From Eledone cirrhosa (Eukaryota), in contig OZ024747.1 of NCBI GenBank assembly GCA_964016885.1, forward strand, positions 78,430,001-78,494,000: a DNA stretch of 64,000 nucleotides, given 5' to 3'. This document shows positions 21,189-34,618 of this stretch, in pieces. The notes below the pieces were generated by a model that saw only the letters and a list, made by a program, of their open reading frames with translations, did not search any database and was not told where the DNA came from. A program made the position numbers and the translations under genes. Position 1 is the first letter of the stretch; every line of letters begins with the position of its first letter.

Positions 21189-21231
21189 ACAATATTACAT
21201 AAATGGAAAACTATATTTATAAAACCATATT

Positions 21232-21297
21232 TATTTCATTATATATATTTCGGGGATATCATATTAACAATATGCTATGCCTTCATCAGACAAAATA
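21232..21297 (-). ncRNA. Minimal type I hammerhead ribozyme, array copy 1
   Basis: Minus strand reads TATTTTGT-CTGATGA-aggcatagcatattgttaatatgatatcccc-GAAA-TATATA-TA^-ATGAAATA. Stem I is 8 bp with two G-U pairs, stem II is CATATT/AATATG plus ATA/TAT and GG/CC, stem III is the palindrome TATATA. Predicted cleavage between 21240 and 21239. Confidence 0.8.
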
Positions 21298-22848
21298 CAA
21301 TATAAACAGTTTTATAGATAAATATATTCGACATACCGTAATAAACATCAACTTCATTTGAAGAGGTTCACTCTAGCAGTGAAAATACAGAGAGAAAGAA
21401 AGAGAGAGAGAAAAGAGGGAAATAAGAAAGAAAGAAAGACGAAACGAAGAAAAGGAAGAAAAAGAAGAAAAAGAAGAAATGCATGGGACAAAATAGAGAG
21501 ATGGAAAAAATAGATAAAGCGAAGAGCTTCATGTAAAGAGACCGAAAGAGATATATATATATATAGAGAGAGAGAGGAAATAGAGATAGATACATATATA
21601 AATATAGATATAGAAAAATTAGGTAGTGGGAGGTCATTTTGAGTAAGTGTATCAATGATGCATTTATTTATTTATTTATTTATTTATTTATTTATTTAGC
21701 TCAAGTATTAATGTAAGGGAGATATAGAGAGATATAGAGAGATATAGAGAGAGAAAAATTTAAAAATAGCCAGACATATTCGAGGCGTAGAAAACCCTAT
21801 GTTTTAATGTATTAGTATTTATAAAACTTACACTATATTGTAAATATCAGTATTCCTGAATGAAACAAGTATTCACAATGCGTGAAAATTCATTATCTTA
21901 TGTTTAGTTTTTAAAAAAAAAATTCATATGTCTATGTGAATCCAACTGATTCACTCCGCAAATTCAAAGTTACCGGAAAACATTCTCAATGTGGTATAAA
22001 CATTTGAGCGTATTATTATTCTTGCGATTACTCTACAAGATTATCTATCAAGCAGAAATAGAGAGCAGATTTCAATATACTAATCGAAAATATATATTAT
22101 ATTATAAGCAGAGATAACAATAATAATGATAATAAGTAAAAATATATAAAAATATATAAAAATATAAAAATATAGAATAGAAAACTAAAAAAGAATATTA
22201 CGAAAGAATATTACATAATAAAAATATTGCATATTAAAAATACTACGTATTAAAAATATTACGTATTAAAACTTTACATATAAAAATATTAAAAATAAAA
22301 ATAAAATAAAATAAAAAATAAAATAAAAATATAAAAATATTATAGAATACTACAATACTAAAAGAATAAAAATAAAAATAAAAATAAAAATAAAAATAAA
22401 AATAAAAATAAAAATAAAAATAAAAATGAAAATAAAAAATAAAAAATAAAAAATAAAAAAGAAAATAAAAAATAAACCACAAAGAACAACCCTTCAAGGT
22501 TAATTGACAATATATTGCCAAGTTCACTACAAGACAAAGCCAAAAATTATCTATCAAATCACACCTAGCAAGGAATATCGCAAAAAAAAAGATTATGATG
22601 TCCAATAATGTCTACATATGTTCCTATATTTAATATATAAGTTTATCAAGTGTAAGGTTAATTCATAAAATTTGGAGCATCGGCTTTTAGGGTAGCTTAA
22701 TTTTTCATGAGGAATGTTTAGATAAAAAAAATAAATAAAAATAAAAATAAATACAATAAAATAAACAGTAAAAAGAGGGAATCAAAGATTTAGGAATCAA
22801 AAGATTTATCGGCTAGTTCTCATATAAATATAAATCAAACTAAATATA

Positions 22849-33084: not shown

Positions 33085-33263
33085 TTTTCAGTTATAATAT
33101 AAAGCGCTCAACAGTATTGGAGCAAGATACATGTAAAGTTATATTTAAAATTGTTGGGTTACAACTAGTAAATATTTATAACTGATATAAAAGCACTCGA
33201 CAAATACTTGGAGTATATTTACAATATTACATAAATGGAAAACTATATTTATAAAACCATATT

Positions 33264-33329
33264 TATTTCATTATATATATTTCGGGGATATCATATTAAC
33301 AATATGCTATGCCTTCATCAGACAAAATA
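33264..33329 (-). ncRNA. Minimal hammerhead ribozyme, array copy 4
   Basis: Identical to 21232-21297. Confidence 0.8.
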
Positions 33330-34618
33330 CAATATAAACAGTTTTATAGATAAATATATTCGACATACCGTAATAAACATCAACTTCATTTGAAGAGGTT
33401 CACTCTAGCAGTGAAAATACAGAGAGAAAGAAAGAGAGAGAGAAAAGAGGGAAATAAGAAAGAAAGAAAGACGAAACGAAGAAAAGGAAGAAAAAGAAGA
33501 AAAAGAAGAAATGCATGGGACAAAATAGAGAGATGGAAAAAATAGATAAAGCGAAGAGCTTCATGTAAAGAGACCGAAAGAGATATATATATATATAGAG
33601 AGAGAGAGGAAATAGAGATAGATACATATATAAATATAGATATAGAAAAATTAGGTAGTGGGAGGTCATTTTGAGTAAGTGTATCAATGATGCATTTATT
33701 TATTTATTTATTTATTTATTTATTTATTTAGCTCAAGTATTAATGTAAGGGAGATATAGAGAGATATAGAGAGATATAGAGAGAGAAAAATTTAAAAATA
33801 GCCAGACATATTCGAGGCGTAGAAAACCCTATGTTTTAATGTATTAGTATTTATAAAACTTACACTATATTGTAAATATCAGTATTCCTGAATGAAACAA
33901 GTATTCACAATGCGTGAAAATTCATTATCTTATGTTTAGTTTTTAAAAAAAAAAAATTCATATGTCTATGTGAATCCAACTGATTCACTCCGCAAATTCA
34001 AAGTTACCGGAAAACATTCTCAATGTGGTATAAACATTTGAGCGTATTATTATTCTTGCGATTACTCTACAAGATTATCTATCAAGCAGAAATAGAGAGC
34101 AGATTTCAATATACTAATCGAAAATATATATTATATTATAAGCAGAGATAACAATAATAATGATAATAAGTAAAAATATATAAAAATATATAAAAATATA
34201 AAAATATAGAATAGAAAACTAAAAAAGAATATTACGAAAGAATATTACATAATAAAAATATTGCATATTAAAAATACTACGTATTAAAAATATTACGTAT
34301 TAAAACTTTACATATAAAAATATTAAAAATAAAAATAAAATAAAATAAAAAATAAAATAAAAATATAAAAATATTATAGAATACTACAATACTAAAAGAA
34401 TAAAAATAAAAATAAAAATAAAAATAAAAATAAAAATAAATATATATATATATATATACTAGTGGACCTGTGTCGTCAATAATTACGGCGATAGTATTGT
34501 ACATCGCATAAGAGAAACTATATAGTTCATGTTGATCACTGCACTGACACGTGGAAGTGAGCCAAGAGAATACAAATCAAAACAACAAAAGATATTTCAA
34601 TAATTTTTATGTCTAGGA

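Follow-up and report, generated by a model that had tools for sequence, protein, structure and literature searches.

We analysed a 64,000-nt stretch of the Eledone cirrhosa genome (contig OZ024747.1; G000:C7:78430001-78494000), here called the window, whose coordinates are used throughout and which carries a head-to-tail array of a Penelope-like element (PLE). The array is a direct tandem on the minus strand, from 21190 to 34440, made of three full units and a 1.2-kb partial unit with periods of 4010, 4011 and 4011, and it has a total element length of 13.25 kb. Unit coordinates (u) are given in element sense, that is on the minus strand, with unit 2 as the reference (u1 = 29210, u4011 = 25200). 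The layout of the insertion and of the microsatellite around it is as follows.

20826-21189, no strand: (TA)n target microsatellite, 3' side of the insertion
21190-34440, minus strand: whole insertion, a single 3.3-unit arm with no inverted partner arm
21190 and ~34440, minus strand: ends of the insertion, the 3' end at 21190 being the family's untailed end and the 5' end at ~34440 being truncated
21190-25199, minus strand: unit 1, 3'-most, 4010 bp
25200-29210, minus strand: unit 2, 4011 bp, reference
29211-33221, minus strand: unit 3, 4011 bp, identical to unit 2
33222-34440, minus strand: partial unit (part of the 3' untranslated region (UTR), pseudo-long terminal repeat (pseudo-LTR)), ending in a low-complexity tract beside (TA)n
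29116-29210, minus strand: 95-nt tail (u1-95) bounded by the two fixed 3' ends of the family, the putative start sites of the reverse transcriptase (RT)
25105-25199 and 33127-33221, minus strand: equivalent 95-nt tails in unit 1 and unit 3
34441-34458, no strand: (TA)n target microsatellite, 5' side of the insertion

An initial annotation, made from the letters of the window, had described three complete units and one partial unit of about 4.01 kb, head to tail and differing in one homopolymer only, and both statements were borne out. Units 2 and 3 have no difference at all, while unit 1 and the partial unit differ from them only in one A-run, which is 10, 11, 11 and 12 bases long across the three units and the partial. 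Because both flanks consist of (TA)n, a target duplication at the array cannot be judged.

Each full unit contains an open reading frame (ORF) for the same 737-aa product, so the description of the element as an intact RT-endonuclease retroelement also held.

22849-25062, minus strand: ORF copy 1, 737 aa
26860-29073, minus strand: ORF copy 2, same 737-aa product
30871-33084, minus strand: ORF copy 3, same 737-aa product

The protein is composed of a telomerase-like RT (about residues 1-500, YRDD at 352), a CxCX5C linker (596-604) and a GIY-YIG endonuclease (613-715). A Pfam search of the 737-aa protein returned no match, Pfam on 7 of its 120 listed homologues gave none above the cutoff, and profile searches against solved structures yielded weak RT matches alone (E 0.012-0.9). 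Of 7,998 candidates scored in homology searches, 144 proved to be homologues; the closest has 39% identity, and the named ones come from Argonauta hians, which points to a probable cephalopod host. An AlphaFold model built on a 92-sequence alignment reached a pLDDT of 91.6, and its best fold match was TERT (Foldseek E 1e-9; VIA Z 16.0, rmsd 6.7, 347 aligned). Residues 613-715 of the model superposed on the catalytic domain of the GIY-YIG enzyme I-TevI with Z 9.6 and rmsd 2.2 (88/92 aligned). The GIY-YIG residues Y, YxG, R, E and N were invariant across 53 rows, as was the YRDD core of the RT. The motifs RW[K/R], DKT, CxCX5C, CxxC and CxH are given as defining the Hydra clade in PMC8557442, and all were found: RWR at 37 (a K to R variant of RWK), DKT at 118, CxCX5C at 596, CxxC at 694 and CxH at 721, with flanking conserved E and N. 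The CCHH motif was absent by inspection, with a single invariant His between the YxG motif and CxxC. Blocks of the Hydra-1_Obim protein, as printed in the supplement of PMC8557442, were visibly similar when compared by eye. On these motifs, the (TA)n target and the by-eye protein likeness, we assign the element to the Hydra clade. The telomerase-like RT, the GIY-YIG domain, the type I hammerhead described below and, family-wide, the pseudo-LTR, inverted copy and tail make it an endonuclease-positive PLE.

One type I hammerhead was found per unit, and the predicted positions coincide with the cuts at 21239, 25249, 29260 and 33271 that had been named initially.

21219-21315, minus strand: type I hammerhead, predicted cut 21240/21239, 50 nt upstream of the 3' end
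25229-25325, minus strand: type I hammerhead, predicted cut 25250/25249
29240-29336, minus strand: type I hammerhead, predicted cut 29261/29260
33251-33347, minus strand: type I hammerhead in the partial unit, predicted cut 33272/33271

The predicted cut lies at u3961/3962, 50 nt from the unit end. Rfam detected no hammerhead at gathering or E-value thresholds, and folding of the 141-nt hammerhead region was no better than that of shuffles (z = 0.7). Among the BLAST-projected copies of loci L001-L160, no allele at the 12 core positions was common to at least 3 loci, with N7 variable and showing three alleles. We compared 24 related motifs, picked for diversity from the element's family and related families via a pattern that fixes the core. 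Helices I and II covaried over these motifs, with 95% of cells paired and compensatory changes in 12/19 pairs, and 0/500 shuffles scored as high. Helix III has 2 bp with a self-complementary 8-nt segment, a predicted dimer form with the dimer-type layout described in PMC4209133. The hammerhead is thus conserved in the family, and self-cleavage is a prediction from these sequences. At window position 25262 and its equivalents in the other units, the youngest subfamily carries a C beside the core in helix II where older subfamilies carry U, and this C gives an A-C mismatch or a shifted G-C register. At one locus (L163:412-706) a 14-nt segment across the cut is triplicated in one arm only, which suggests cut-site slippage. 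The (TA)n-rich flanks that were fetched contain further hammerhead families with differing helix II (L049, L075, L133, L178 and others), which indicates that many related elements inhabit the genome.

The family has about 3,000 copies in the genome, located in (TA)n. The hammerhead region had 2,924 exact genome matches, the tail junction 2,708 at no more than 2 mismatches, the 5' UTR 309, and the ORF start 59 exact matches. We fetched 200 loci, comprising the 20 closest or multi-unit ones, 40 consecutive hammerhead-selected clusters, 100 near-full-length copies and 40 tail-selected copies. An ORF of at least 700 aa was present in 52/107 fetched full-length copies (a few double-counted via overlapping fetches), and the family, which is very young and abundant, is intact in many of its copies. 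The commonest layout was two inverted arms with their 3' ends facing outward into (TA)n. One arm ended at u4011 (untailed) and the other at u95 (tailed), 95 nt apart, in 70/74 two-arm insertions of loci L001-L100. Single arms were a minority, not rare, and included copies of 1.05-1.5 units (L084, L091, L093); the array in the window is one untailed arm. Target duplications of about 10-12 bp were seen at sister insertions in imperfect (TA)n. Many insertions of 5-14 kb were assembled with clean unique flanks, and a two-arm insertion of about 14 kb is present at L071/L072. At one locus (L035:2872-7268) an internal deletion of about u2276-2886 is common to both inverted arms.

If the direct repeats of these insertions had been inherited by plain read-through, then the upstream and downstream repeats should form two diverging lineages. 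Before comparing them we masked low-complexity tracts and gap-adjacent columns, merged overlapping fetches and excluded the window from the pairs. At sites with shared minor alleles, upstream and downstream repeats agreed in 545/561 comparisons (76 pairs) and inverted arms in 649/671 (117 pairs), while shuffled pairing gave a mean agreement of 13% and a maximum of 25% over 200 shuffles. Among 67 upstream/downstream differences, one kind only recurred in two loci, and 20 locus-private alleles were present in both direct copies. The repeats were mostly 94-100% identical even in copies only 80% identical to the window unit. Linear read-through with independently inherited repeats is ruled out by this homogenisation within insertions (545/561 against 13%).

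The lengths of the second pass point in the same direction. They were continuous, from 31 to 3331 nt, and followed an exponential fit over 86 arms (3 added by hand, 3 without self-match dropped), the mean being 921 nt for all arms and 1,240 nt for the young set. No arm ended within 8 nt of the hammerhead cut, neither in 37 tail-selected first-pass arms nor in 84 second-pass arms, so that run-off at the cut as a major class is ruled out (0/121). The cut site was traversed without an indel in 229/230 pieces, and the predicted circle junction would read the same as the junction between tandem units in the genome. In these respects the family fits a rolling retroelement, its direct repeats being re-copied from one template and the monomer end never acting as a stop. 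A survey of other copies had been proposed as a check, and the fixed 3' ends, variable 5' ends and non-integer lengths it was to look for are all present family-wide. We judge from these genomic patterns that the direct repeats were likely rebuilt by rolling on one template, and that this template was probably a circular RNA which the RT went round repeatedly.

The arms also carry a mark of where their templates may begin. First-pass arms ended at u3812-3840 in 35/58 and 13/28 cases, second-pass arms in 2/73 (p = 4e-14 and 3e-7). The upstream edge of this pile-up was sharp at about u3821, at an initiator-like motif similar to that reported for Adineta pseudo-LTRs in PMC3846280, and u3821 is likely the transcription start.

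25385-25395, minus strand: putative transcription start, u3821 = 25390, at the initiator-like motif that marks the pile-up edge in sister copies
21380, 29401 and 33412, minus strand: equivalent putative start positions in the other units

A hairpin around u3812-3840 favours annealing or joining of the two arms and accounts for part of the pile-up. The partners of long arms stopped at u3812-3840 in 1/25 cases, and the arm ends were correlated (Spearman 0.79, n=30). Short insertions may come from uncut linear RNA transcribed off the promoter in the repeat, and long ones from a processed monomer that lacks this end. Strand transfer of the LTR type at the transcription start would produce second-pass stops there, and the 2/73 observed speak for its rejection. 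At one locus (L120:5654-6142) a junction leads from u260 back to the putative start (about u3818-3821), giving a 450-nt unit that retains the hammerhead and extends over 1.06 passes.

Two further loci contain much smaller rolled units. At L140:4822-5345 (G000:C2:346276000 onward) a 188-nt unit consists of u3983-4011 joined to u1-159 and lacks the hammerhead; its novel junction occurs three times over both inverted arms and nowhere else in G000. At L137:5450-5909 (G000:C2:316651000 onward) a unit of about 169 nt, also without a hammerhead, has its junction twice in one arm; this junction is confined to its own locus in G000, and one A-run varies between passes. Both junctions have about 1 nt of homology, and the 5' boundary of either unit lies 21-30 nt beyond the cut. 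When the 200 loci were all scanned for such junctions, only these two and the single L120 jump came up. One new junction in both arms of L140 is hard to obtain by DNA duplication, and a small RNA with joined ends can explain it.

Our leading explanation for the array in the window, advanced tentatively and falling slightly short of an even chance, is that it was written in one event by an RT circling one end-joined monomer RNA, likely a hammerhead-made circle. The starting components are at hand: an intact ORF for RT and GIY-YIG endonuclease, a (TA)n target and a conserved hammerhead. Transcription would begin at about u3821 in the upstream repeat and pass through two hammerheads. Both target strands would be primed from two starts, 50 and 145 nt downstream of the cut, to give two inverted arms, a pattern that is observed and whose mechanism is our proposal; at the array only the first arm would have formed. 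On uncut linear RNA both arms would run off at the transcription start and produce short insertions. If instead the hammerheads cut as a dimer and the monomer was ligated, the RT would pass the join until it dropped off at random, and rolling past the join would rebuild the direct repeat, or pseudo-LTR, and rarely several units. The initial annotation had proposed such rolling on circular RNA in a single event. The rolling model is favoured by the family pattern of fixed 3' ends, one-template repeats and absent stops at the cut, although it is not new; a single-event origin is likely, yet the array is the sole arm of at least 2 units among the near-full-length copies examined.

Several observations weigh against the circular template, or against its use at this locus. 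None of the 86 other arms reached a second full unit; a direct tandem was found only at the array among the 59 exact ORF-start matches genome-wide, and at none of the 5'-UTR matches checked (the first 100 out of 309 listed). The fitted drop-off assigns P ~6e-4 to an arm of such length, and the genome-wide chance is 3-16% with the young subfamily or about 1% with the pooled rate, depending on rate and arm number; the array is therefore rare under the drop-off model, and a scan selects extremes. The support consists of patterns in genomic DNA, and precise end-to-end template jumping predicts the same DNA. PMC11167929 reports that insertion in vitro did not require cleavage and that RNA-seq ends were absent at the cut, and minimal hammerheads are described as having low activity in PMC4209133. 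At minimum energy the monomer folds into a structure other than the hammerhead, and in the youngest subfamily the mismatch or register shift affects the base of helix II. Roughly half of the arms run through the hammerhead site and end at the presumed start, so that uncut linear RNA probably also serves as a major template, in line with the in vitro results of PMC11167929. Concatemers without a hammerhead indicate that rolling does not strictly depend on hammerhead-made ends. Finally, a third hammerhead-less mini junction (u186 to u3974) is present at two G000 loci (G000:C7:74733561 and 74733791, in tandem 230 bp apart, and G000:C15:30836035) and also in public contigs of two sequencing runs (X1 and X2); mini units can thus have DNA parents, and the assembly may lack such a parent for L140 or L137.

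The array could have begun instead as an ordinary 1.3-unit single-arm insertion that was later enlarged to 3.3 units when its 1.2-kb direct repeats underwent unequal crossover or slippage, with a rolled template still possible for the family. We consider this somewhat unlikely. Single-arm copies of suitable length are known, an arm of at least 2 units is improbable under the fitted drop-off and this array is the only one, and a recent event would also make identical units and spread the array's one private allele (u608). DNA duplication would, however, require two rounds at one young locus, and not even one was seen in 86 other direct-repeat arms; the 13.25-kb total also falls within the range of two-arm insertions. 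The A-run does not arbitrate here: its pattern at the array was matched by 5 other loci only, and homopolymer length does not distinguish a single event from duplication.

If the template had been a linear hammerhead-cut monomer, held in the protein complex and copied in one event with precise 5'-to-3' end jumps at each pass, then no covalent circle would be needed. Such jumping accounts for all of the within-insertion identity. The mini junctions with about 1 nt of homology and their hammerhead-free ends are compatible with end-to-end jumps, and the L120 jump from the putative start site to u260 fits as well. Failed jumps should nevertheless accumulate at the cut, where 0/121 arms ended (upper bound about 2.5%), and the crossing shows no added bases in 229/230 pieces. 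We regard linear jumping as quite unlikely.

Over-expansion of an array with fewer units during assembly has a slim chance of being the explanation. The units are identical save for one homopolymer and their number is known from the assembly alone; against this, many insertions of 5-14 kb from the same family were assembled with clean unique flanks, long reads would be expected to span a 1.3-unit copy (5.2 kb), and the A-run differs among units. A linear multimeric RNA from a looped-out DNA circle or a tandem master locus, with no role for the hammerhead, is very improbable: uncut RNA was the main substrate in vitro in PMC11167929, and a DNA circle would homogenise repeats too, but the loci examined yielded no multi-unit master for any other haplotype, the putative promoter is absent from the 169-188-nt mini units, and read-through of a 1.x-unit parent would separate upstream and downstream lineages, which the homogenisation contradicts.

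We return to rolling on a circular RNA and to its place among known systems. The array is an extreme of a known architecture and the proposed mechanism a published hypothesis: tandem and inverted layout, tail, hammerhead and (TA)n targeting have already been described (PMC8557442, PMC3846280, PMC6765202, PMC5680766), and the circular-template model, with hammerhead cutting, possible ligation and more-than-unit reverse transcription, was proposed in 2014 (PMC4209133). That model is the one put forward in the initial annotation; in PMC4209133 it is tentative and comes without copy-level evidence, for which genomic support is given here. Our data go beyond it in the short class, likely derived from uncut RNA, and in the hammerhead-less mini-concatemers. 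What is new is family-level copy evidence for rolling on one template, from 200 loci. In a literature search that did not extend to subscription papers or to the supplements of preprints, no paper turned up that shows repeat homogenisation at copy level or mini-concatemers of this kind.

The closest relatives are the Hydra-clade elements, such as Hydra-1_Obim (PMC8557442), which share the single ORF of RT and C-terminal GIY-YIG, the hammerhead and the (TA)n target. Hydra-clade families are generally below 3 kb in that account, whereas the present unit is 4.0 kb with a 1.66-kb 3' UTR; the tail is given there as 30-40 nt for PLEs and is 95 nt here, and the present family is very young and abundant and includes a 3.3-unit arm. 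PAc, a Poseidon element of Anolis carolinensis (PMC11167929), is alike in having two internal RT starts that define the tail, with both target strands cut and extended, and in its AT-rich target, its hammerhead upstream of the start sites and the use of uncut RNA as template. It belongs to another clade, and its start sites lie inside the ORF, in contrast to the 5' UTR in this element. The same paper proposes multimeric linear transcripts and leaves repeat regeneration unexplained, whereas here the pairing of one tailed with one untailed arm per insertion and the homogenisation were counted. Penelope of Drosophila virilis (PMC2377424) and the Adineta Penelope families (PMC3846280) resemble the present element in the partial tandem with an inverted 5'-truncated copy and optional tail, and also in the start site in the upstream repeat, the initiator-like motif and the palindromes at the inverted junction. 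Self-priming is favoured in PMC3846280, while our data favour two priming events on one re-read template. Animal non-LTR retrozymes are alike in their tandem units with one type I hammerhead each, and circles and RtcB ligation have been demonstrated for these non-coding elements (PMC7229834). They are non-coding and about 170-400 nt long, whereas the present unit is coding, autonomous and 4.0 kb in length and thus falls outside that class; the mini-concatemers are retrozyme-sized but hammerhead-free. The authors of bioRxiv 10.64898/2026.07.22.740005 argue that retrozymes arose from PLEs.

How the pseudo-LTR is rebuilt and what the hammerhead does in PLEs has been an open question since at least 2008 (PMC2377424). 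The insertions described here record the mechanism: they show two starts, a likely transcription start, a cut site crossed seamlessly, and rolled units as small as 169-188 nt. A wider reading, which we see as possible though on the doubtful side, is that this is an autonomous animal retrotransposon rolling on circular RNA, in which two RTs, each starting at a fixed point, would write both arms from one circle and hammerhead cutting would switch the transcript from short run-off to rolling template; any RNA circle with the start region of about 170 nt, even one free of a ribozyme, might then be rolled into tandem arrays. If true, this would show retrozyme-like and satellite repeats in the very process of being born. 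With purified protein, the 169-188-nt mini units could be used directly as substrates to compare linear with circular templates.

Other repeats lie around the array in the window. A related family has left a short two-arm insertion in (TA)n at 12929-13253, which has its own plus-strand hammerhead at about 13145-13220. An interspersed repeat at 20650-20800, of which a second instance lies next to L013, is presumably of the octopus-type SINE-like (short interspersed element-like) kind. Long tandem arrays with 24-, 42-, 22- and 66-bp units are found at 43225-50080, 50534-51692, 52451-52759 and 55020-55927, respectively; they yield repeat-only ORFs and do not match the Penelope element.

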